From the IMG/VR virus record IMGVR_UViG_2537562190_000012: a stretch of 16,968 nucleotides of DNA. One strand, 5' to 3'. Position numbers and translations under genes: made by a program. Source of the DNA: a virus. Lineage: Duplodnaviria; Heunggongvirae; Uroviricota; Caudoviricetes. This document shows, piece after piece, positions 4,577 to 16,872 of this stretch. The notes under the pieces were generated by a model. That model had not been told where the DNA came from and did not search any database. It was given only the letters and a program-made list of their open reading frames with translations. Positions within the stretch are counted from its first letter, which is position 1. Every line of letters begins with the position of its first letter.

Positions 4577-6847
4577 ATGAGTACCACAACACGAAAATTT
4601 AAAACCATTATCACTGATACTGGTGCCAAAAAATTAGCTCAGGCAGCCGCGCCAGATGGTAATCCTGTCCACCTGACTCACATGGCCGTGGGCGACGGTG
4701 GCGGCACGTTGCCCACACCAGACAGTAAGCAGACCCGTCTGGTGCATGAGGTGTGGCGACATACTGTTAATCGCGTCATCCTGGACGCAACACATCAGAA
4801 CCGCATTATTGCGGAGCTGGTTATTCCTCCTGAAACGGGCGGATTCTGGATCCGGGAAATTGGTGTATTTGATGAGCACGGCGATTTGATCGCGGTGGGC
4901 AATACTGCCGAAAGTTACAAGCCAGCCGTTGCCGAAGGATCCGGACGTGCACAAACATTTCGCACCATTCTGACCGTATCCAGCACTGCCACCGTGGCGC
5001 TTACCGTGGATAACACCATGGTTATGGCCACAGTGGATTACGTGAATGACAAACTGAAAGAACATGAACAGTCACGACGTCACCCGGACGCCTCGCTGAC
5101 CGCAAAAGGCTTTGTTCAACTCAGTAGCGCCACCAACAGCACGTCTGAAGCACTGGCCGCAACGCCGAAAGCGGTCAAGGCAGCCTATGACCTTGCTAAC
5201 GGGAAATATACCGCACAGGACGCCACTACAGCGCGAAAAGGCATTGTCCAGCTCAGTAGCGCCACCAACAGCGATTCAGAAACGCTGGCGGCAACACCAA
5301 AGGCGGTAAAGGCAGCCTATGACCTGGCTAACGGGAAATACACCGCACAGGATGCAACAACAGCACAGAAAGGGATAATCCAGCTAAGCAGCGCGACCAA
5401 CAGCACATCTGAAACGCTTGCCGCGACACCAAAGGCAGTAAAAACAGCCTATGACAATGCTGAGAAACGTCTGCAGAAAGATCAGAACGGTGCGGATATC
5501 CCTGGCAAAGACACCTTTACGAAAAATATTGGTGCCTGCCGTGCCTTCGGTGGGTCAGTAAGCACAACAACAGGAAACTGGACGACTGCACAGTTTATCG
5601 AGTGGCTGGATTCTCAGGGAGCATTTAACCATCCATACTGGATGTGCAAGGGTTCCTGGTCTTATGGCAATAATAAAATCATTACTGATACTGACTGCGG
5701 TAATATTCATCTCGCCGGAGCTGTCATTGAAGTAATGGGGATAAAGTCAGCGATGACGATCCGCATTACCACACCGACCACCTCCACTGGTGGTGGAACA
5801 ACTAACGCCCAGTTTACCTATATTAATCACGGAACAGATTATTCACCTGGCTGGCGAAGGGACTATAACTCCAGAAATAAGCCAACGGCATCAGAGATCG
5901 GGGCGTTACCGTCAGGTGGAACAGCAGTATCATCAGTTAATCTGGCTTCAAAAGGTCAGGTAACCGCGCTGACAGACAATACGCAGGGGGCAACAGGTCT
6001 TGAGTTATACGAGGTGTATAACAACGGATATCCAACAGCGTATGGAAATATCATTCACCTGAAAGGGATGACAGCCGTTGGCGAAGGTGAGTTACTCATC
6101 GGCTGGAGTGGTACAAGCGGTGCTCATGCTCCGGCATTTATTCGTTCACGACGGGATACGACCGACGCAAACTGGTCGCCGTGGGCGCAGCTTTACACCT
6201 CGGCTCATCCTCCTGCAGAGTTTTATCCAGTCGGTGCACCAATCCCGTGGCCATCAGATACCGTTCCGTCTGGTTATGCCCTGATGCAGGGGCAGACTTT
6301 TGACAAATCTGCCTACCCGAAACTTGCAGCCGCTTATCCGTCAGGCGTGATCCCTGATATGCGTGGCTGGACGATTAAGGGCAAGCCCGCCAGTGGTCGT
6401 GCCGTATTGTCTCAGGAACAGGACGGCATTAAATCGCACACCCACAGCGCCAGCGTATCCAGTACGGATTTGGGTACGAAAACCACATCGTCGTTTGATT
6501 ACGGGACGAAAACAACCTCACTATTTGACTATGGGACCAAAACTACCAGTAACGCCGGGAGTCACACGCATTCAATACCAACATCAGATGGTGCAAACCA
6601 GTGGGGGAAAATTCCACTGACATCTGGGCGTCTGGCAACTCAATATACATCAGCAACAACAGGTTCCTCTGGCTCACATTCTCATACTGTAGGTATTGGT
6701 TCTCATCAGCACACTGTCGGTATTGGTGCACACACGCACTCCGTTGCGATTGGCTCACATGGACACACCATCACCGTAAACGCTGCTGGTAACGCGGAAA
6801 ACACCGTCAAAAACATCGCATTTAACTATATTGTGAGGCTTGCATAA
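4577..6847 (+). CDS. H: Tail fiber protein H (P2 gpH-like N-terminus; repeat-rich shaft; His-rich C-terminal tip)
   Basis: 756 aa. The N-terminal 170 aa or so closely resemble P2 gpH ([39 protein letters not shown]). Internal 44-aa tandem repeats and a C-terminal HxH-rich domain. Confidence 0.92.
5105..5480 (+). repeat. In-frame tandem repeat inside H: 132-nt (44-aa) unit, two full copies plus a partial third
   Basis: Unit KG[FI][VI]QLSSATNS[TD]SE[AT][27 protein letters not shown][RQ] begins at 5105, 5237 and 5369. Copies differ at many synonymous third positions. Confidence 0.85.
6473..6550 (+). repeat. In-frame 30-nt (10-aa) tandem repeat inside H, about 2.6 copies
   Basis: Peptide [10 protein letters not shown] / [10 protein letters not shown] / GTKTTS read directly from the translation. 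Nucleotide copies are diverged at synonymous sites. Confidence 0.8.
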
Positions 6848-7425
6848 TGGCATTCAGAATGAGTAAACAATCACGAACCCTCAAAATTTATAATCTGCTG
6901 GCCGGAACTAATGAATTTATTGGTGACGGTGACGCATATATTCCACCTCATACAGGTCTACCTGCAAACAGTACCGATATTGCACCGCCAGATATTCCGG
7001 CTGGCTTCGTGGCTGTTTTCAACACTGATGAGGCATCGTGGCATCTCGTTGAAGACCATCGGGGTTATACCGTCTATGACGTGGCTTCCGGCGACGCGTT
7101 ATTTATTTCTGAACTTGGCCCATTACCGGAAAATGTCACCTGGTTATCCCCGGAAGGGGAGTTTCAGAAGTGGAACGGTACATCCTGGGTGAAAGATGCA
7201 GAAGCAGAAAAACTGTTTCGGAGCCAGGAGGCGGAAGAAACAAAAAACAGCCTGATGCAGGTAGCTAGCGAGCATATTGCGCCACTTCAGGATGCTGTAG
7301 ATTTGGATATTGCGACGGAAGAAGAGGCATCGTTACTGGCTGCATGGAAGACATATCGGGTATTGTTGAATCGTGTTGATACAACAGTAGCAGCGGATAT
7401 TGAGTGGCCAGTCGCCCCACAATAA
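6847..7425 (+). CDS. G: Tail fiber assembly protein G (P2 gpG family)
   Basis: 192 aa. ATG overlaps the H stop (TAATG). Position immediately after the tail fiber gene. Confidence 0.85.
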
Positions 7426-7431
7426 AAAGAA

Positions 7432-7461
7432 AAAGCCATCGATAGAAATATCGATGGCTTT
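7432..7461. terminator. Bidirectional intrinsic terminator between G and the convergent minus-strand cargo gene
   Basis: Perfect 13-bp stem AAAGCCATCGATA / TATCGATGGCTTT with GAAA loop. On the minus strand it is followed by a T-rich tract (TTTTTCTTTTTATT), and on the plus strand by TATGTGCTCTATTTAT. Confidence 0.8.
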
Positions 7462-7468
7462 ATGTGCT

Positions 7469-8041
7469 CTATTTATACAATACAACACCGCTCTTTTTAG
7501 TTATATATGTGCAGTTCGATGGTATATCTTTATTTATAAAAGACATTGCGCCTATTTTTACATTATCCCCGATTTTACGTGATAATCCAATGATGCAACA
7601 ATTAGCTCCGATATCAACGTTACTACCAATTTTTACTCTTGAACCAGGTATGTCACCATCTATCTGTCCAATCGTAGTATTCTGTCGTAATACCAGATTT
7701 TCACCTGCATCAACAGCAAAATGAACAACAATTCCAGCATGATGGGGAATTGTTAACCCTTTTCCAATATTTGCTCCCAATCCTATTTCACAACCAAATT
7801 TGTTAATTATTTTACTGTTTAACTTTTTGGCTGCTTTTTTATGTAATTTATTACCATTAATATACATTTCGTTAGCCAACCGCCACCAGAAAAGGAAATT
7901 CCGGTTACGCTGCTTTTTCTCTCTTAAAAGCCTCCAGATATCCATACGTTTCCGCCGAATTACTTCATGTTTCCAGAAGTTTTTTAAATTAGTAGAGTTC
8001 CCAAATAAAACAAAGTGAATTGCCATTAAGTAAGACAGCAC
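7469..8041 (-). CDS. Hexapeptide-repeat (left-handed beta-helix) acetyltransferase, CysE/WcaB-like; cargo (moron) gene in a low-GC island
   Basis: ORF 7469..8074 in the track. Preferred start is GTG 8041 because AAGGAG (8053-8048) lies 6 nt upstream; ATG 8026 and GTG 8074 are alternatives. C-terminal half has serine-acetyltransferase-type hexapeptide repeats (GANIGKGLTIPHHAGIVV ... IGSNVDIGANCCIIG ... IGDNVKIGAMSFINKDIPSNCTYI). Strongly AT-rich compared with the flanking phage genes. Confidence 0.75.
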   Translation of the reverse strand: MLSYLMAIHFVLFGNSTNLKNFWKHEVIRRKRMDIWRLLREKKQRNRNFLFWWRLANEMYINGNKLHKKAAKKLNSKIINKFGCEIGLGANIGKGLTIPHHAGIVVHFAVDAGENLVLRQNTTIGQIDGDIPGSRVKIGSNVDIGANCCIIGLSRKIGDNVKIGAMSFINKDIPSNCTYITKKSGVVLYK

Positions 8042-8092
8042 GAAAATCTCCTTAATTATTATTTCAGACCACACATGTTATAAGGTTAAGAG

Positions 8093-8121
8093 ATTATAAA
8101 ATCCTGTTATTTGTTATTCAA
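8093..8121 (-). promoter_or_regulatory. Putative sigma70 promoter for the acetyltransferase gene
   Basis: On the minus strand: -35 TTGAAT (8121-8116), 17-bp spacer, -10 TATAAT (8098-8093). Predicted transcription start is near 8086, upstream of the SD and GTG 8041. Confidence 0.6.
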
Positions 8122-8197
8122 AAACAATTTTCTGAGAAGGACATACAACAGCAAGTCGCCAGTCACCTTCATCAGGAAATTGGCGACATACGTTAAA

Positions 8198-8692
8198 TCA
8201 GAGCAGCCCCTTAACTGAGCTGGCCGCGCTATTAAGGGATGATGTCACCTTATCTTTGAAGCCGGACAACATATCGCTGAACGATGAGGATTGCAGGCGC
8301 TCCCGCAAATCCTCATCACAGCGTTCAAGAGTCAGTGAAAATTCTATCTTTTTCGCCTTACCGTAGCGATCAAACTCGGAGCGGGTCGTATTCGTTTCAG
8401 TCAGGACATACATGCCGTAAATCTGCCCGACGCCATCAATCAAAGGCCAGGGTCGTCCTGTATACGCCTGCGTGGTCAGCAGCGACAGCGACACTTCGCC
8501 ACCTGTAATTTCAGGATAAAGCACACCAGAAAGAACGATGCGATCATCACCTGCACCGATATACTGCCAGCTTGCTGAACGGTTAACGCGTTCATTTTTC
8601 ACATGCCGCCAGCTTTTGTTTTGCTGTAACTGCTGATGCGGCAGCGTGCGCAGCTCAAAAACAAACATGCCGTAGATCATCATCATGGCCAT
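8198..8692 (-). CDS. U: Tail protein U (P2 gpU family)
   Basis: 164 aa, with gpU-like motifs (FELRTLP, WRH, LSGVLYPEITGG, WPL.DG.G.IYGMYV). Immediately downstream of T on the same strand. Confidence 0.85.
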   Translation of the reverse strand: MAMMMIYGMFVFELRTLPHQQLQQNKSWRHVKNERVNRSASWQYIGAGDDRIVLSGVLYPEITGGEVSLSLLTTQAYTGRPWPLIDGVGQIYGMYVLTETNTTRSEFDRYGKAKKIEFSLTLERCDEDLRERLQSSSFSDMLSGFKDKVTSSLNSAASSVKGLL

Positions 8693-8698
8693 GACTCC

Positions 8699-11515
8699 TC
8701 AATCTTTATCGTAAAAACTGCCACGCCCGGCACGGGCACGCCGTTCCATTTCTGCCCTGACCATTTCACCGACCAGTTTCGCCAGTTCGCGGGGATTCTG
8801 CGTAACAACGTTATGCAGATGAACATGAATTTCACCACCAAATCCGGAGGCAACAGGCTCCCGGTTACGGGAAGTTACAGGAACTGATGCCACTGGAGAT
8901 CGTATGGCCTCCGCCACCGGGCGGGAGCTGGCCGCAACAACAGGGACCAGCGCCGGAGGCAGCGGTGCCGGGACCACGGGGGTGATATTAATTGCGGGGG
9001 CAGGCTTACTGACCTGCGCAATCTTCCGCTCCTGCCACTCCCCACGAACAGCAAGTGCGCGGGGCAGGTTCTTAAAGACAATATCGCCGGGGCCAATGCG
9101 TTTTTTCGTCTCATCAACCAGCTTACCTGTGTTATCAGCAATTTTGCTGAGTCTGCGTAGCGTCCCGGTATTGCTGTCTGTGAGCGGTTTGTTGTCTTTG
9201 GGTTTATCACCTCCGGTGCCATTGCCATTTTCCACAGGCTTCGGCGGATTGATTTTCGCCAGGTCCCCCTGAAGTAAGGCAACCTTGTCCCGAAGAATGG
9301 CCGCACGCTGTGCGTCTTCGATTTTCTTGCGCGCCCTTTCAGCTTCATCCGGAAGGACGCCAAGTTTTTCAAGTATCCACGCCAGCGTATCCAGTAGCAT
9401 TTTTGCAGGTGTCAGAACAAGTTGTAACGCACCGCCAAGAACGTTACCGAATATCTCGCCAGCACTGGTACATTTATCCAGCGTTTCCTTGCTGGACTCC
9501 ATCGGTGACAGCAGCGATTTAAACCAGTTAAACACCTGGCTGATCCCGCTTCCGATTGCGTCAAAAACAGGGCCAAACCGTTCAAAGGTTTCGCGCAACG
9601 GGGTCAGCCTTTCCATAATCCCGCTGAACACCCCGGCAAAAAATGCCCTGATGGGATCCCAGTATTTCCAGATAAGAACGGCAGCTCCGGCAAGCGCAGC
9701 CACGATAAGACCAACCGGACTGAACAGCGCCCCGATAGCGCCTCCCAGCAAAGAAACGGAACCCGTCAGCATTCCCCACAGCGCAGGCAACACCCTGACG
9801 ACATTCATTGACCGGGTAAGAATGTCAAAACCAAGACGCAGGGTGGCCAGCTTTCCGTAAAGCACCCCAATAACCAGCGACAACGAGCGAATCGTTGCAG
9901 TCATTGCCAGCAACGCACCGCCTGCTATCAGTAGCTGGCGTGTCAGTACCGGATGGGCCTGCGCCAGCGAGGTGATTTTTTCAAGCACCCGCGTGAGCCA
10001 CTGCGTGACAGAACGCAGCGGACCGTCAACCAGATCACTGATGCGAATACGAAGACCTTCCCATGCGCTGTCGAGATTTTTCAGGTCCCCATCAAGATTA
10101 TCGGCCATTACTTTTGCGACGCGATCGACCTCTCCCCTTGCCCCCTGCAATTCTCTGGTCAGTTTTTGCAGCTCTCCTGAACCAGCCGCCGCAACAAGCG
10201 TCTGCAAACCAACGAACGCCTCTTCTCCGGCGATGTCCTTGAAGAAGGAAACCTGGTCCACCTGTCCGTATTTTTGTGTCGCCTTATAGAGATCAAGCAG
10301 CACATCCTCCATCGGGCGCATTTTGCCCCTGGCGTCAGCAACTGACACCCCCAGCTCTTTCAGCGCATCAGCCGCAGCTTTTGGCGGTGATGCAAGGCGG
10401 GACAGACTTGCGCGCATGGCCGTACCAGCATCGCTTCCACGAAGACCATTACTGGCAAGCATCCCGGCCATGGCTGCCGCTTCTTCAAGACTGATACCAA
10501 GTTTTGCGGCAACCGGACCGGTATACTTCATGGTTTCGCCCAGCGCGCGTAAATCAGTATTGGTCCGGGTGAATGCCGCTGTCAGCGTATCGCCAACCCG
10601 GTCCATTTGATCGGCTGTCAGGTTGAACTGTGTGAGGATATTGGAGCCTATATCAGCCGTCTCGCCGAGTTCGACGCCACCTGCCAGCGCCATATTAAGA
10701 ACACCGGGCAATGCGGCCTGAATGGCCTGCGGAGTAAAACCAGCCATTGCCAGAAAGCTCTGCCCACTGGCGGCATCACTCGCAGTAAACGGTGTTTCAG
10801 ATCCAAGTTTTAACGCCTGCTCACGCAGCGCCTTAAACTGCGGGCTGTTTTTGTCGATTCGCGTCAGTGCCTGAACGCGGGACATCTCTTTGCCGAACCC
10901 GATCGCAGGCTGCAAAAAACGCCCGGCAGCATAGCCGCCCGCCGCTGCCGCACCAATTGCCAGTGCACCACCTGTTTTCAGTTTTCCCGCTGTTTCCTGC
11001 GCGCGCGAATACCGCTCACGCGCCCGCGTTACACGCGCAAGCGCCTGCCGTTCGCGTTCAAGCTGGTTGTTGTACTGTTCGGTGCGTCTGATGGCCTGCT
11101 GGATGGTGTTATCGCTGCCTGTCAGGGAAATGCCGTGGCGTTTCAGCTCTCCGCCAAGCTCCCGCATTTTTTGAATTTCCCGTGTGCGCGATTCATTCAG
11201 GCGTTCAAGCCGGGTGCTTAACTGCTGCATCAGCTTTTGTTGTTTTTCGCTGAGCACTGTACCCGTACGTTGTAACTGATTAAGGGCGTTAAGCTGGCGT
11301 CGTGCTTTCACGATGCCAGCATCCGCTTTACTGACAGCGTCACGGGCGCGCTCAAATGAACGCGCCTGACGCTCGAGATTTTTAATCGCCCCCTGCGTTC
11401 GCTGGATGGAGTCACCAAACTGCCCCATCAGGCGGCGGGCGTTTTCGGCAGGCCGGGTCAGCCTGTCAACGGCGCTGAAAGCGACCCGGATATCAAGAGT
11501 CTTCATTATCTGCAT
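8699..11515 (-). CDS. T: Tail tape measure protein T (P2 gpT family)
   Basis: 938 aa; long helical, A/L/Q/R-rich protein with central hydrophobic segments. Follows the E/E' chaperone genes. An alternative ATG lies at 11506. Confidence 0.9.
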   Translation of the reverse strand: MQIMKTLDIRVAFSAVDRLTRPAENARRLMGQFGDSIQRTQGAIKNLERQARSFERARDAVSKADAGIVKARRQLNALNQLQRTGTVLSEKQQKLMQQLSTRLERLNESRTREIQKMRELGGELKRHGISLTGSDNTIQQAIRRTEQYNNQLERERQALARVTRARERYSRAQETAGKLKTGGALAIGAAAAGGYAAGRFLQPAIGFGKEMSRVQALTRIDKNSPQFKALREQALKLGSETPFTASDAASGQSFLAMAGFTPQAIQAALPGVLNMALAGGVELGETADIGSNILTQFNLTADQMDRVGDTLTAAFTRTNTDLRALGETMKYTGPVAAKLGISLEEAAAMAGMLASNGLRGSDAGTAMRASLSRLASPPKAAADALKELGVSVADARGKMRPMEDVLLDLYKATQKYGQVDQVSFFKDIAGEEAFVGLQTLVAAAGSGELQKLTRELQGARGEVDRVAKVMADNLDGDLKNLDSAWEGLRIRISDLVDGPLRSVTQWLTRVLEKITSLAQAHPVLTRQLLIAGGALLAMTATIRSLSLVIGVLYGKLATLRLGFDILTRSMNVVRVLPALWGMLTGSVSLLGGAIGALFSPVGLIVAALAGAAVLIWKYWDPIRAFFAGVFSGIMERLTPLRETFERFGPVFDAIGSGISQVFNWFKSLLSPMESSKETLDKCTSAGEIFGNVLGGALQLVLTPAKMLLDTLAWILEKLGVLPDEAERARKKIEDAQRAAILRDKVALLQGDLAKINPPKPVENGNGTGGDKPKDNKPLTDSNTGTLRRLSKIADNTGKLVDETKKRIGPGDIVFKNLPRALAVRGEWQERKIAQVSKPAPAINITPVVPAPLPPALVPVVAASSRPVAEAIRSPVASVPVTSRNREPVASGFGGEIHVHLHNVVTQNPRELAKLVGEMVRAEMERRARAGRGSFYDKD

Positions 11516-12031
11516 TCCCGCTGCGAAGTGCCGCCCGCTCGCGCCAGCTAACCACTTCGCCGGGCGTCATCATGAAGATTTCGGCGGGCGACCAGTTAAA
11601 AATGGCGGCAATATCCGCCACCAGATCTTCGATGTGCTCAAAGCACACCAGGGTGATTACGCTGCCGTCTCCTGCACGCTCTTCGCGCCAGAGTCTGGCT
11701 CGCTCATAAAATTTACAGCCACAGCGCACAACTGAATAAAATCGCGTGACGACATTTTTTTAATCATCACTTCATCCAGTCGTGGCGAGGTCACGCGAGG
11801 CAACAGCATAAACATGGTATCCGCTTTCAGATTCAGCACATCAGACAGCGACAGACCACGCAGGGATCCAGCCTGCTCAATAGCCCCGGTGATCTCCACA
11901 TACGTGATTTTTTCGCCACCACGCTCAATTGGTCGGGTCAGTTTTACGCCACGTTCGACAGCCATATCCTCACCTGCCGTCACATCATCCGCCACGGTGT
12001 TATTCCGGTATCGAGTATCGATCTCTTTCAT
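11493..12031 (-). CDS. E': Tail assembly chaperone E+E' (predicted -1 frameshift fusion of E with the downstream overlapping frame)
   Basis: The downstream ORF 11493..11729 is in the -1 frame relative to E and ends overlapping the T start. An A7 run (minus strand, 11761-11755) sits in the overlap. The arrangement mirrors P2 E/E+E' and lambda G/GT. Confidence 0.6.
11657..12031 (-). CDS. E: Tail assembly chaperone E (P2 gpE family), zero-frame product
   Basis: 124 aa ORF with SD AAGGAG 7 nt upstream of ATG 12031. Lies between the tube gene and the tape measure gene. Confidence 0.8.
   Translation of the reverse strand: MKEIDTRYRNNTVADDVTAGEDMAVERGVKLTRPIERGGEKITYVEITGAIEQAGSLRGLSLSDVLNLKADTMFMLLPRVTSPRLDEVMIKKMSSRDFIQLCAVAVNFMSEPDSGAKSVQETAA
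11755..11761 (-). other. Candidate slippery site (A7 run) for the E/E' -1 frameshift
   Basis: Minus strand reads ATT AAA AAA ATG in the E frame. The -1 frame has a TAA immediately upstream of the run and then stays open into E'. Confidence 0.5.
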
Positions 12032-12086
12032 CAGTTGTCTCCTTTTCAGTCAGAGGCGGCGCACTGCGCCGCCTGCATATTACTTA

Positions 12087-12599
12087 TCAGCCAAGCCCAA
12101 GCGCGGAACGGATACGGTCAGGCACAATGTCCTTGCCGTCCTTCCGGTAGATGTGGTTCAGCAGGTCGATTTCCCACAGCGGACGATCGTTAACGCTCAG
12201 CTTGTAGTAGGTGTTTTTGACAGCGTAAGTGTGTGATGTGGCTTCGCCCTGTTTGGCTTCCCCCATATCAATTTCCGTCACACGCCCGCGCATCTCGATT
12301 TCATACAGATCACTTTCTGCATCGGTGTAGTATTCACCCGCAAAACGCAGCAACGTGCCGTCAATCGTGCCGCCATATTTAAGGAACAGCTCATGAACTG
12401 CGCCCCCCATGACAAAACTCGCATCAAGCGCAGAATCATCAAGACCGAGGTCGATACTCACCGCCCCCATCATGCCACCGCCACGATAGCTTTCAGTTTT
12501 GCGCGTCAGTTTAGGTGGAGTGACGGATGTCACCTTACCCACTTCGTTTTCACCATTCACAAACAGCGTAAAAAAGCGAAGATGTTTTGGTACAGCCAT
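12087..12599 (-). CDS. FII: Tail tube protein FII (P2 gpFII family)
   Basis: 170 aa, with gpFII-like motifs (VTPPKLTRK.E.YRGGGM, RFAG.Y, GEAKQGE). ATG overlaps the FI stop (TGATG); SD GGGAGGTG upstream. Confidence 0.9.
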   Translation of the reverse strand: MAVPKHLRFFTLFVNGENEVGKVTSVTPPKLTRKTESYRGGGMMGAVSIDLGLDDSALDASFVMGGAVHELFLKYGGTIDGTLLRFAGEYYTDAESDLYEIEMRGRVTEIDMGEAKQGEATSHTYAVKNTYYKLSVNDRPLWEIDLLNHIYRKDGKDIVPDRIRSALGLG

Positions 12600-13783
12600 C
12601 AGACACCTCCCAACACCGCAAATGCGGGATCAAAGTATTCATCAGTAAACGTCTGGTAAAGCTCCATATCTTCCAGCGGAGGAACGGGCGTATATTTGTA
12701 GCGAATACGCACACGCCCCTGACGTAAATCCGTGGTGCTGTTATCCACCACGTCATACCAGCACGACGCGCCAATCAGTTTCCCGGCAGTAACCAGCGAA
12801 TCCAGTTTTGCCCTGATGGCACTGATAACATCCTTCACGTTCGCAGGCGTCAGTGGACTGTCGATGGTTTCAAACTGCGCTTCCGCAATTGAATCAGCCA
12901 GCACCTGTGCGGTTCGGGTATACACCTCAAAGATGTAGGCGTTCGTTTCCGGTGTGCGGTTGCCCCAGAAGCGGAACCCGTTGCGACGAATAATGGTCGT
13001 GATTTCTTTGTTATTGAGGCTGTTGGCATCACTGTCTTCGGCCTGCAACGACCAGAACACATGCCTGGACATTCCCAGCACATTTTTAACCGGAACATTG
13101 GACAGCGATTTGTGCCAGCCCTGCTCATGGTCAATGTACGCACGAAGGCCGCACGCATAAGCAGGCGCGGGGAACGTTTCGTTTTCGCCACTTTTCGGGT
13201 TGTAGGCGATGAAGTCAGGCCATAAGAGCATCACTTCACGTTCGTTGAATTTCTGGCGGTAGGTAATCGCTTCAGCCATCGTGTTACAGCCGTGACATGA
13301 GGCATACACAAATGCGCGCAGTTTACCCGCAATCACGCACAGGGATTTTGTCACCGCCTCCGTGTCCAGCTCCGGCGCGGCCAGAATACGCGGACGGTAT
13401 CCGATGCTTTCATCCTGCTCTGCAACAAGCAGCGCATACATCCCCGTATAGCTGCCGTCATCCTCAGAACCACCGATAACCAGTTGATCCTGCGTCTTAC
13501 CGTCTTCTTCTTTGTGTTCAGCCACGCGAACGACGATCACCTTTGTGCTCACCTGGTCTGCGATGGCCTTAAGCGCACGATAAAGCGTCCCCGTTGTTCC
13601 GCATTTTCCCAGCACGTCATTGACGCGGGTCAGCAGTGTAGGCTTGTTCAGCGGGAACAGCTTCGCGTCCGCATCATCCGCCGTTGCCACGATACCGATA
13701 ACGCTGGAATCAACATCGTTAATCGCTGTTACCAGGTCGGTATTTTCCGTAACACGGGCACCATGAAAACGAGTTTCACTCAT
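12599..13783 (-). CDS. FI: Contractile tail sheath protein FI (P2 gpFI family)
   Basis: 394 aa, with motifs matching gpFI as I recall it (FPLNKP, LRAFVYASCHGC, DQEQGWHKSLSNV, IRRNGFRFWGNRT, YTPVPPLE). SD AAGGGG upstream of ATG 13783. Confidence 0.93.
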   Translation of the reverse strand: MSETRFHGARVTENTDLVTAINDVDSSVIGIVATADDADAKLFPLNKPTLLTRVNDVLGKCGTTGTLYRALKAIADQVSTKVIVVRVAEHKEEDGKTQDQLVIGGSEDDGSYTGMYALLVAEQDESIGYRPRILAAPELDTEAVTKSLCVIAGKLRAFVYASCHGCNTMAEAITYRQKFNEREVMLLWPDFIAYNPKSGENETFPAPAYACGLRAYIDHEQGWHKSLSNVPVKNVLGMSRHVFWSLQAEDSDANSLNNKEITTIIRRNGFRFWGNRTPETNAYIFEVYTRTAQVLADSIAEAQFETIDSPLTPANVKDVISAIRAKLDSLVTAGKLIGASCWYDVVDNSTTDLRQGRVRIRYKYTPVPPLEDMELYQTFTDEYFDPAFAVLGGV

Positions 13784-13940
13784 AGCTTCAGCCCCTTGTA
13801 TCCGTTAAATGATTCGGCAACAATCATCACCCACCACGCGCGTAATCTCACCCCTGCGCCGTTCTCCCGACCCGGCGACAACAAAAAGCAGTAACCCCCT
13901 CCGCACGCACATGCGACCATGCCGCACAGGGAGGGAACAG

Positions 13941-15050
13941 ATGACCGACACCACCATGCAATTGCTCAGTCAGGGCACAGACCCCGTAAAAATGCCGGAT
14001 TTTGATATTCTCGCGGAGGGTAAAACGCTGTCCGGCGTGGCAGAGCGCCTGATGAGCCTGTCGCTGACCGACAACCGGGGATTTGAGGCAGACCAGCTCA
14101 CCATCACGCTGGATGATGCGGATGGTCAGTTGCGGCTACCGCCACGGGGCGCGCGCCTGACGGTTCTCATTGGCTGGAAAGGCGAACCGCTGACAGAAAA
14201 AGGCTCTTACATTGTTGATGAAATCGCACACGAAGGACCGCCGGACAGGCTGACTGTTTCAGCCAGAAGCGCAGATTTTCGGGATGAATTTAACGTTAAA
14301 CGTGAGGTGTCCTGGCATGATGTGACCGTTGAGCGTGTGGTATCCGCCATCGCTCATCGGTACGGTCTGAAACCGCAAATCAGCGAAATGCTGATGGATA
14401 TCGAAATCGACCACGCCGACCAGACCGAAGAAAGTGACATGTCCTTCCTTACGCGCATGGCGGAAATGCTGGGCGCAATCACCACGGTAAAAAGCGGTAA
14501 TCTGTTATTCATCATGCCCGGCGGTGGCGTGAACGCACAGGGCCAGCCGTTGCCATCGTTCGCCATCACACGCAGCAGCGGCGATCGCCATCAGTTCCGC
14601 ATTGCTGACCGCGAGGCGTATACGGGGGTACGCGCTTACTGGCTTGATCTTAATTACGGGAAAAAGAAAAAAGTCAGCGTGAAACGCCGCAAACCGCCAA
14701 AACCGAAAAAAGAGAAAAGCAGCAGCCGTGAAGGTGATTATATGGAAGGCGCGGAAGGCAATGTGTTTGTGTTACGCAAGACTTATCAGAACGAGCAGGC
14801 AGCAAGACGCGCAGCGGCGGCAAAGTGGCAACAACTACAACGCGGAGCCGCATCATTCTCCATCACGCTGGCACGTGGACGAGCAGAACTCTACCCCGAA
14901 ATGCATGGCACGGTAACAGGATTTAAAAGCGAGATTGATAATCAGGACTGGATTATTGCAAAAGCCGAGCACACCATTGATAACAGCGGCTTTACCACGC
15001 AGCTTGAGCTTGAGGCAAAAATCCCGGAATGGATAGCGGAAACAGAGTGA
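13941..15050 (+). CDS. D: Tail protein D (phage late control gene D family)
   Basis: Track ORF 13809..15050. ATG 13941 is preferred because AGGGAGG lies 5 nt upstream. Protein has gpD-like features and a lysine-rich internal segment. Confidence 0.85.
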   Translation: MTDTTMQLLSQGTDPVKMPDFDILAEGKTLSGVAERLMSLSLTDNRGFEADQLTITLDDADGQLRLPPRGARLTVLIGWKGEPLTEKGSYIVDEIAHEGPPDRLTVSARSADFRDEFNVKREVSWHDVTVERVVSAIAHRYGLKPQISEMLMDIEIDHADQTEESDMSFLTRMAEMLGAITTVKSGNLLFIMPGGGVNAQGQPLPSFAITRSSGDRHQFRIADREAYTGVRAYWLDLNYGKKKKVSVKRRKPPKPKKEKSSSREGDYMEGAEGNVFVLRKTYQNEQAARRAAAAKWQQLQRGAASFSITLARGRAELYPEMHGTVTGFKSEIDNQDWIIAKAEHTIDNSGFTTQLELEAKIPEWIAETE

Positions 15051-15092
15051 GCAACTTAGAATAGCGGCAGCACCACGTTAAAGGAGGTCGCT

Positions 15093-15353
15093 ATGTTCCG
15101 TTGTCCGCTTTGTGGCGCATCTGCCCGTATCCGCACCAGTCGTCCGGAAAATGATTCAAACACCGTGCGGCAAAAGTATTACCAGTGTAACAACCTGGAA
15201 TGCGGCGTATGCTTCTCAACACTGGAAGCTTTCCATAAATTCACATCGAAACACGCCTCCGGCGTTCACTCATCAGAAGGTATCCCGTGGCATGAGCTGC
15301 CAGCTTCACACAGGGGAAACAATCAGATGAGTTTGCCTTTACCTCAGAATTAA
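15093..15353 (+). CDS. ogr: Ogr/Delta-family zinc-finger late transcription activator
   Basis: 86 aa. SD AAGGAGG 5 nt upstream of ATG. N-terminal CPLC ... QCNNLEC Cys4 arrangement as in P2 Ogr. Position after D. Confidence 0.85.
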   Translation: MFRCPLCGASARIRTSRPENDSNTVRQKYYQCNNLECGVCFSTLEAFHKFTSKHASGVHSSEGIPWHELPASHRGNNQMSLPLPQN

Positions 15354-15491: not shown

Positions 15492-16327
15492 TCAACCTAG
15501 CAAGTGATAGGTTAGCGCCTCTCCAACAAAGGAGCAAGCGCTTGTATGGGTCCACCACATATTGCAATTTTTATTCTCTTTTAAAATATATTCCACGGGC
15601 GTCATTAGTGCGAGCGCCTTGTGGGGTCTTTTGCTGTTATACAGCACCAGATATTCCGCCAGCTTCTGGTTAAATAGCGCCAGATCTTCAAAGAGTAAAA
15701 TCTCATTAAATTCAATAAACTGCTCTCTTAACGTCCGGTTAAAACGTTCACAGATAGCGTTCATTTTTGGCGTGTAGGGATAGGTCCAGAGGTGTTTGAT
15801 AGCGGCTTCCTGCAGCGTTTTGTCGAAGTTTCCCAGGAACTCTTTTCCGTTATCTGTGATTATCTGGCTGATACCGACCGGGAACAACCGGGCTGCGCGG
15901 CTGAAGAAGTGATTGACGATATCACTGTTGAGTGACGGCACAGCCAGCGCCAGCGCGTAATTGCTGCATTCGTCGATCATGGTGATGACATAGCGACGCA
16001 GTTCGCCCATTCTGAGCTCAATGGCGTCCATCCCAATGAGCTCACCTGTCTTTACCGGGCGGTAGTGCTTTGGCCTGCGGGGTTTGGCAGACCGCTTTTT
16101 GACAAGCAGTGCCTTCCCCCGCGATCCCAGACGCACAGGTATCATCCGCATTTTATCATGTGCGGCAGCGATCATTCTGCCGATGGTGGAAACACTCGGA
16201 CAGGCCAGATAGCGCTGTTCGCACCAGGGCTTCAGGCGAACAAAAATCTGCTCTTTACCGAGGTTCGGCAGCTCTGTCCTGAGGCGTCGAATCTCTTTCA
16301 GCACATCGGGATGCCAGTGTTTTTTCG
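15492..16327 (-). CDS. IS transposase OrfB (integrase-core / DDE domain), probably made as an OrfAB fusion by -1 frameshift
   Basis: Frame is open from 16343 downward. Integrase-core-like motifs (ITDNGKEF, YPYTPKMNAICERFNRTLRE). It is in the -1 frame relative to OrfA, with the heptamer A AAA AAC (minus strand, 16325-16319) in the overlap. Confidence 0.7.
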
Positions 16328-16579
16328 TCGCACCAGAGGTGCCTTACTGTGCGGGATTAGCCCCTCAGGTCCTTCCTTGTTCAGTAACTGACGCCACCAG
16401 TAAAGCGTGCGGCAGGACACGCCAAAGGCTTCAGAAGCTGCAGAAATACCGTGTTTATCCCAGAAGTGCAGAGCCTTCATTCTCATTGTTGCTATATCAG
16501 CCATCACTGAAAGCCTCAACGCATAATCGGCCGTTTGGTAGTATTTAGGATAGCCAACCATCAGATGCTGCATTTGCAT
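16298..16579 (-). CDS. IS transposase OrfA (N-terminal helix-turn-helix part)
   Basis: 93 aa. Motif AFGVSCRTLYWWRQLLNKEGPEGLIPHSKAP resembles the N-terminal HTH of IS481-family transposases. SD AGGGGAG upstream of ATG 16579. Confidence 0.7.
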   Translation of the reverse strand: MQMQHLMVGYPKYYQTADYALRLSVMADIATMRMKALHFWDKHGISAASEAFGVSCRTLYWWRQLLNKEGPEGLIPHSKAPLVRRKNTGIPMC

Positions 16580-16872
16580 AGTGCAATCTCCCCTTACTTA
16601 TCCGGAGGCAATTGCAATATCTCTGTGAACTTACACAGTGCTATGTCGCAAAAATCGCTTACGGCCATCACGTTCTGCGTGACGGCAATCCTCATCATCT
16701 GGATGTTGCACGGTTCGCTGTGTGAAATACGGATGAGCTTCTGGGGAGCGGAGTTTGCGGCGTTCTTACAGTGTAAGCAGTAAGGAAACCGCGACGGGGG
16801 AGCAATCCCCCGTCAATCGGTTGCCAGGGTAAGGTCGATAAGGCACCCTATCTCACAGACATGAACAACAAA

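Follow-up and report, generated by a model that had tools for sequence, protein, structure and literature searches.

The island and its acetyltransferase

The whole stretch of DNA analysed here, referred to as the window (16,968 nucleotides (nt); IMG/VR record IMGVR_UViG_2537562190_000012), is a P2-family prophage of Escherichia coli with a P88-like (Xuanwuvirus/Gemsvirus) backbone. It carries an AT-rich cargo island (positions 7426-8197, no strand) with a gene for a predicted acetyltransferase. The island extends from the stop codon of the tail-fibre assembly gene G/Tfa (Caudo_TAP; 6847-7425, +; Pfam PF02413, E = 6.7e-41), which is convergent with the acetyltransferase gene, to the stop codon of the gpU tail protein gene (8198-8692, -), which comes last in an inverted tail module and forms the right border of the slot. 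The initial annotation, made from the sequence alone, had described a segment of about one third GC between flanks of over half, carrying a single minus-strand gene of 190 amino acids (aa) with its own near-consensus sigma-70 promoter and a strong terminator, in the layout of a moron. Most of this description was borne out. The GC content of the island was 0.341 (0.344 in the coding sequence (CDS)), compared with 0.506 in H and G on its left and 0.552 in U and T on its right. Among all 772-bp segments of the sequence this one had the lowest GC content, about 3.9 standard deviations (sd) below the mean (0.532, sd 0.049).

The sole substantial open reading frame (ORF) of the island is on the minus strand. 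Its mechanical span is 7469-8074, and its real start is the GTG codon at 8041; AAGGAG lies upstream, the 190-aa CDS in RefSeq agrees and the copies in P1-like phage-plasmids have ATG at the homologous codon. The gene occupies 7469-8041 (573 bp, -). The Shine-Dalgarno sequence AAGGAG (8048-8053, -) is separated from the GTG by a 6-nt spacer and is kept in four homologues (L223, L227, L232 and L233). Further upstream, a sigma-70-like promoter (8093-8121, -), recognized by consensus match only, combines a -35 element TTGAAT (8121-8116), a 17-nt spacer and a -10 element TATAAT (8098-8093), and scores 10 of 12 consensus matches. The same promoter is found base for base upstream of the L233 homologue, whose protein is only 71% identical. 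The scan as a whole was not richer in such sites than expected by chance (see below).

Downstream of the gene, an intrinsic terminator (7418-7461, -) is formed by a perfect 13-bp stem (7432-7461) with a 4-nt loop, followed by a T-run. Its folding energy was -18.1 kcal/mol (z = -5.7), and none of 200 shuffled sequences was equally stable. It lies 6 nt past the stop codon of G and probably serves both convergent genes. Apart from this terminator, no direct or inverted repeats marking an insertion were found at the island flanks, and an Rfam scan of the island yielded nothing relevant within 7426-8197. Rfam family RF02111 ('IS009'), listed there as a candidate small RNA of E. coli, was matched at 7190-7388 (+) with a score of 189 bits, where the gathering score is 117; the match falls wholly within the 3' half of G.

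Profile searches, an AlphaFold model and alignment to CysE agreed with the initial view of a short helical N-terminus followed by a CysE/WcaB-type hexapeptide fold, and place the product in the hexapeptide-repeat (left-handed beta-helix) acyltransferase superfamily. The Pfam Hexapep match (E = 2.6e-5) was slightly below the gathering score (24.2 vs 27 bits). In PDB, the top matches by sequence and by fold were serine acetyltransferases, and all 55 matches at E <= 1e-3 had the left-handed beta-helix fold. The AlphaFold model (predicted local distance difference test, pLDDT, 86) consists of five helices (residues 2-82) and then the beta-helix, in agreement with an N-domain of residues 1-82. The best NCBIfam matches were EpsC, CysE and WcaB, every one far under its cut-off: TIGR01172 (CysE) gave 61.2 bits vs 210.65, NF008349 gave 36.3 vs 397 and TIGR04016 (WcaB) gave 53.3 vs 194.65. 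When the beta-helix domain was compared by hhalign, WcaB was found with 99.6% probability and 36% identity and CysE with 98.9% and 28%, so that in profile terms this domain appears nearer to WcaB than to CysE. A strong match was also obtained to PHROG 2154, a family of unknown function, and a Foldseek search of viral structures (BFVD) returned no significant match.

Residues E85 and H100 align with the catalytic pair D143/H158 of CysE, and the His in the IPHHAG segment that the initial annotation had pointed out is the equivalent of CysE His158. The pair is retained in all aligned homologues save the yong2/613R2 branch, and H100 is nearly invariant in the family. In contrast, the serine-binding residues of CysE are replaced (D157 by P99, R192/H193 by S134/R135), and the region of CysE D92 is outside the alignment, in a part where the family is variable. 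Other parts of CysE are absent as well. The N-domain has 82 residues vs about 140 aa in CysE, the alignment spans only residues 114-236 of CysE, and the C-terminal CysK-binding tail is missing, as the protein stops about 11 residues past the helix. The product has in common with CysE the overall fold, the final helices of the N-domain and the acid-His pair; what CysE has in addition is its serine-binding residues, a hexamerisation domain and a C-terminal regulatory tail. With regard to WcaB, the closest named beta-helix relative, the likeness lies in small size and the same HH-type catalytic motif, and WcaB acts on a lipid-linked sugar; it differs in lacking the FWWR-containing helical N-domain and in being sited in the wca operon rather than in a prophage. 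The motifs FWWR[LI]A, RQNTTIG and GAMSF[IV]NKD[IV]P distinguish the family from both enzymes. A bona fide CysE was rejected because of the replaced serine-binding residues together with the sub-cut-off scores. These features suggest that the product is very probably an active O-acetyltransferase and not a serine acetyltransferase.

The gene is intact rather than a degraded fragment. Ratios of nonsynonymous to synonymous substitution rates (dN/dS) of 0.04-0.18 against copies in P2-like, P1-like and other phage backbones indicate that it is functional and under purifying selection. One branch of the family is different. Homologues of the 613R2/yong2 type (35-37% identical) have Tyr-Leu at the position of the catalytic His-His and no acidic partner, and occupy the slot after tfa in L010 (283-846), L009 (4043-4588), L118, L148, L149, L153, L158 and L175; this branch may be inactive or of different chemistry.

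Although the initial annotation did not recognize a described system, the sequence itself is known: the homologue in the Sakai strain is ECs_2638, RefSeq annotates the identical 573-bp CDS, and hundreds of genomes as well as P1-like phage-plasmids give it the label 'serine O-acetyltransferase'. This database label is probably wrong. The initial view holds as far as function is concerned. Searches of the literature with ECs2638 and the protein accessions returned no reported function (ECs2638 yielded only a genome paper), and the P2 hotspot papers and supplements that were searched for acetyltransferases contained nothing functional. The paper on phage-plasmid JL22 says that it is unknown why the gene is present (PMC9603915), and a Citrobacter paper lists it merely as a 'fitness' gene.

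Cargo variation and genomic associations

We surveyed the slot between G and gpU in the 80 viral contigs whose gpU came closest to that of the window (at least 99% identity). A DNA invertase with an invertible fibre cassette, of the Mu/P1 style that usually fills this slot in the P88-like lineage, was present in 51 contigs. The acetyltransferase allele of the island (97-99% identity) occurred in 13, with the same tfa type, and a 37%-identical homologue of the 613R2 type occurred in six, with a different tfa. Five contigs carried instead a low-GC gene of about 392 aa for a glycosyltransferase family 9 (GT9) protein, one had a deleted remnant of a homologue, three had tfa alone without further cargo and one slot was too short for scoring. 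Thus, the acetyltransferase family was found in 19 of 80 slots and the other 61 had other content, which supports the proposal of variable cargo at this locus; most close relatives lack the gene. The GT9 (heptosyltransferase) gene has a GC content of 0.34, lies at about 5592-6770 in L102, L111, L150, L152 and L156 and adjoins an 87-88% identical tfa. Deviant composition and absence from near-identical relatives support the reading of the island as a moron, an assignment with which the promoter-like and terminator elements are consistent.

The slot had been equated with the P2 Z/fun locus, which is likewise a known variable-cargo hotspot directly after the tail-fibre assembly gene, as are the invertible segments of P88, Mu and P1. 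The two positions are analogous rather than identical: Z/fun lies between G and FI of a collinear late region, whereas here the tail module is inverted and the right neighbour is gpU, not FI. The tail module does adjoin the island, as had been stated. The invertible segments of P88, Mu and P1 differ in another respect, since no invertase and no gix-like crossover site was found in the window.

Comparison with P88 showed that the island is part of a larger mosaic module (5442-8192), composed of the C-terminal two thirds of H, G and the acetyltransferase gene, which stands in for the invertible fibre cassette and invertase of P88. By blastn, P88 and the window are collinear at 93-94% identity up to 5442 and again from 8192. 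The intervening DNA of P88 comprises the variable portion of H, a pair of tfa genes, an alternative fragment of H and a DNA invertase; in the window this place is taken by another H C-terminus, a single tfa and the acetyltransferase gene. Similarity to lambdoid stf-tfa cassettes stops at about 7410, and P88-like similarity restarts at 8192. In P88, Mu gix-like inverted crossover sites (L004:2229-2293 and 5269-5333; core AAACCTCGGTTTACAGGAAAC) bound the invertible fibre segment.

The gene appears to travel with tail-fibre cassettes. A block at 6222-8033, comprising the fibre tip, tfa and the acetyltransferase CDS, is common to the window and P1-like phage-plasmids at about 91% identity; in these (JL22, Ro157c2YLVW) the gene lies inside the C-segment region and is also convergent with tfa. 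Homologues of 35-54% identity immediately follow the tail-fibre genes of phiNP, Hafnia phage yong2, 613R2 and a Salmonella prophage, and those in phiNP, yong2 and 613R2 are likewise convergent with tfa. Besides, 68 of 76 evaluable homologues in IMG/VR (44-99% identity) were convergent with tfa and less than 300 nt away, and most of the remainder lay right after tail-fibre genes. Of two widely differing alleles, each is paired with a tfa type of its own. In lambdoid phages PhiR29_1 and SPF_0923 (L255, L256), whose stf-tfa is 94% identical, tfa is immediately followed by a convergent YbcY-like gene or by sitABCD (a manganese transporter). Because these lambdoid phages hold unrelated genes there, the position after tfa serves as a general cargo slot in different phage types. 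Co-variation of allele and fibre was also considered as proof of a functional tie, and is weakened by the same stf-tfa occurring with unrelated lambdoid cargo and by H tips that vary under one allele.

Some members of the family were found away from this setting. Large plasmids of avian pathogenic E. coli carry an IS1-truncated pseudogene (L092), bfp plasmids of enteropathogenic E. coli (L261-L264) have a lone family gene downstream of the bfp operon, and a different P2/HP1-like prophage has a family member at its hok-proximal end, beside zntA/copA (L257-L260).

A survey of chromosomal homologues (one genome per species, 80 loci) revealed a second association, with genes for the lipopolysaccharide (LPS) core. 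In Leminorella the homologue lies between waaZ and the O-antigen ligase gene waaL, and in Mixta and Pantoea homologues are beside waaQ-waaG-waaP-waaO-waaY. In a Pseudomonas species the homologue adjoins a glycosyltransferase family 2 (GT2) gene with waaP/kinase genes about 4-6 kb off. Two Orbaceae have homologues in tandem with orphan GT9 genes, and a Photorhabdus prophage has one adjoining a WaaZ-like gene. In six Halopseudomonas species the homologue is flanked by an MsbA-type transporter gene (msbA) and a kinase gene on one side and by neuB/GNAT genes on the other. In total, LPS- or glycan-linked contexts accounted for 13 of the 80 loci; our rough estimate for a random gene is less than 1%, with well under one such locus arising by chance.

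Within E. coli the island was carried by 510 of 5,426 complete genomes. It was 100% identical in O103:H2 and O45:H2 strains and 97-98% identical in O157:H7 (prophage Sp13 of Sakai, ECs_2638), O26:H11, O111:H8 and O104:H4.

Proposed function and competing explanations

We propose, with a probability of roughly 0.55, that the island carries a lysogenic-conversion gene whose product O-acetylates an envelope glycan, the LPS core being the best single guess for the acceptor. The self-contained gene would be expressed from the prophage, and its product would be an O-acetyltransferase of the CysE/WcaB branch with a left-handed beta-helix, located in the cytoplasm or at the membrane periphery and probably trimeric. 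H100, held by E85, would act as the general base while acetyl is moved from acetyl-CoA to a hydroxyl. The acceptor would not be L-serine; it may be the LPS core oligosaccharide, or alternatively another conserved lipid-linked glycan such as colanic acid, enterobacterial common antigen (ECA) or the O-unit. The changed surface would then lower the adsorption of phages that use the modified structure, and host interactions might be altered too. The tail fibres of P2, P1 and Mu use the LPS core as receptor. Because of this receptor use, the waa-type loci and the substitution of a GT9 gene in sister prophages, we favour as acceptor the LPS core or, more broadly, an envelope glycan that is assembled in the cytoplasm.

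Several observations weigh against this proposal. We know of no E. coli core type that is O-acetylated. Of the 80 chromosomal homologues, about 60 stand alone in unrelated surroundings, and adjacency by itself does not demonstrate that gene and fibre are functionally linked. The fibre tip of the window resembles lambdoid side tail fibres, so its receptor is perhaps a protein. In homologues of the 613R2/yong2 type, which hold this slot too, the catalytic His and acid are missing. The promoter is a consensus match, and the number of such sites in the scan was not above shuffle expectation (five sites vs 3.9 expected).

Surface-glycan acetyltransferases of prophages are a familiar kind, exemplified by NeuO, Oac/OafA-type enzymes and the Atr proteins of Acinetobacter, and the island gene, which is not phase-variable, would belong to this kind but to another branch of the beta-helix enzymes. 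NeuO, encoded by the E. coli K1 prophage CUS-3, is a polysialic-acid O-acetyltransferase protecting against phage (PMC3046976, PMC13001214). Like the island product it is a beta-helix O-acetyltransferase with a catalytic His, encoded by a single prophage-borne gene; it is trimeric and modifies a cytoplasmically made surface glycan, and we propose the same for the island product. The island gene, encoded by a prophage beside a receptor-binding gene, is located as expected of a NeuO-like role. NeuO differs in belonging to a NodL/LacA-like branch, in having a known acceptor and in being phase-variable via 5' heptanucleotide repeats; a tandem-repeat search for phase variation of this type found no repeats at the island gene, and direct sequence comparison with NeuO gave no significant match. 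Enzymes of the Oac (seroconverting phage Sf6) and OafA/GtrC type are acyltransferase-3 membrane enzymes associated with LPS acetylation that alters phage receptors (PMC9558356, PMC3630932). They are similar to the island product in its proposed role, prophage-driven LPS acetylation, and differ in being integral membrane proteins of unrelated fold that act outside the cytoplasm, whereas the island product is predicted to be soluble or peripheral and to act before export. With regard to the core itself, O-acetylation of the Pseudomonas LPS core exists, and the enzymes were unidentified as of a 2021 study (PMC8005017).

A broader and more tentative idea, which we consider possible although doubtful, is that tail-fibre cassettes of the P2, P1 and Mu types travel with matched 'receptor-editing' genes (the acetyltransferase family, GT9 and WaaZ-like genes) that remodel the lysogen's LPS core. 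If this were true, the family would represent the first genes for LPS-core O-acetylation, and enterohaemorrhagic E. coli lineages would have a prophage-modified core.

Among the alternatives, the one that fares best keeps the enzyme and changes the polymer and the benefit. The product could O-acetylate colanic acid, ECA, an O-unit or a capsule, mainly to the advantage of the host in serum, against neutrophils or in colonisation and less for phage exclusion. WcaB is the nearest named relative, the Halopseudomonas homologues beside neuB and a GNAT gene suggest nonulosonic-acid glycans, and NeuO has both phage and immune phenotypes. However, the island is found in many O-serogroups (O157, O26, O111, O103, O45 and O104), which argues against an O-antigen-specific acceptor; conserved polymers are unaffected by this argument. 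We regard this explanation as a plausible minority one.

The initial annotation had offered two functions, acetylation of a surface polysaccharide and defence. The first is favoured by the genomic associations described above, and the second appears unlikely to us. A defence effector would act inside the cell by acetylating a phage or host protein, a nucleotide or tRNA, and would block replication or abort infection. The P2 tail-gene/Z-fun region is a recognized hotspot that includes defence genes (PMC13586616; bioRxiv 10.1101/2024.10.15.618418), and, as with many defence genes, the island gene is AT-rich and predicted to be autonomously expressed. Two homologues also have suggestive neighbours, an 'abortive infection family protein' in ESSI2_ev040 and HicAB in phiNP. 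On the other hand, a scan of the product against PADLOC-DB 2.0 matched no family at E <= 1 and thus gave the defence reading no positive support. No sensor or partner gene accompanies the gene, known acetyltransferase toxins have the GNAT fold rather than a beta-helix, and the gene goes unmentioned in the P2/P4 hotspot studies searched. Chromosomal members, moreover, lie in LPS-core clusters and not in defence islands.

A detoxification or fitness enzyme of the CatB/Vat, LacA or Maa kind, acting on an antibiotic, sugar or metabolite, would fit the weak matches to maltose and galactoside O-acetyltransferases and the lone copies on plasmids and at many unrelated chromosomal sites. Similarity to CatB/Vat, LacA and Maa is nevertheless far weaker than to WcaB/CysE, and such a role leaves the enrichment beside tail-fibre and LPS-core genes unexplained, which makes it improbable in our opinion. 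Least credible of all is an auxiliary metabolic gene that raises cysteine synthesis as a genuine serine O-acetyltransferase, since the name of the top structural and NCBIfam matches and the conserved catalytic pair speak for it but the lost serine-binding residues, the deep shortfall in score (61 and 36 bits vs 211 and 397), the closer WcaB profile, the missing CysK-binding tail and an N-domain too short for a hexamer interface speak against it.

If the LPS core or another conserved glycan is indeed the acceptor, an unrecognized surface modification would be present in about 9% of complete E. coli genomes, including the Shiga-toxin lineages O157, O26, O111, O103, O45 and O104. Phage susceptibility, with regard to both typing and therapy, as well as antibody and innate immune recognition could then change. 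If the gene has no phenotype, it would be merely another accessory gene in a known hotspot. The analysis corrects a widespread, probably mistaken annotation ('serine O-acetyltransferase') and puts forward a candidate family for O-acetylation of the LPS core.

The prophage around the island

To the right of the island, the module U-T-E'-E-FII-FI (8198-13783) is on the minus strand, and D and the ogr side (13809-15353) are on the plus strand, opposite to the module, as are the baseplate and fibre genes. Since FI and D are divergent, separate promoters are needed for them. Rearrangement caused by the island was considered as the origin of the inverted tail module and rejected, as this is the usual order in P88-like Peduoviridae (P88, 500465-2 and P88_4B11).

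The homologous prophage Sp13 of the Sakai strain (L093) is heavily decayed. In it, IS629 has taken the place of the head and baseplate genes and cut tfa short, IS30 interrupts D, and the tape-measure gene is reduced to a pseudogene. ECs_2638 is intact in this otherwise decayed element. In the window, two IS3-family transposase ORFs (with helix-turn-helix and rve domains) are located at 15492-16579 (-) and make up an insertion of about 1.1 kb relative to P88 (approximately 15542-16637) just past ogr.

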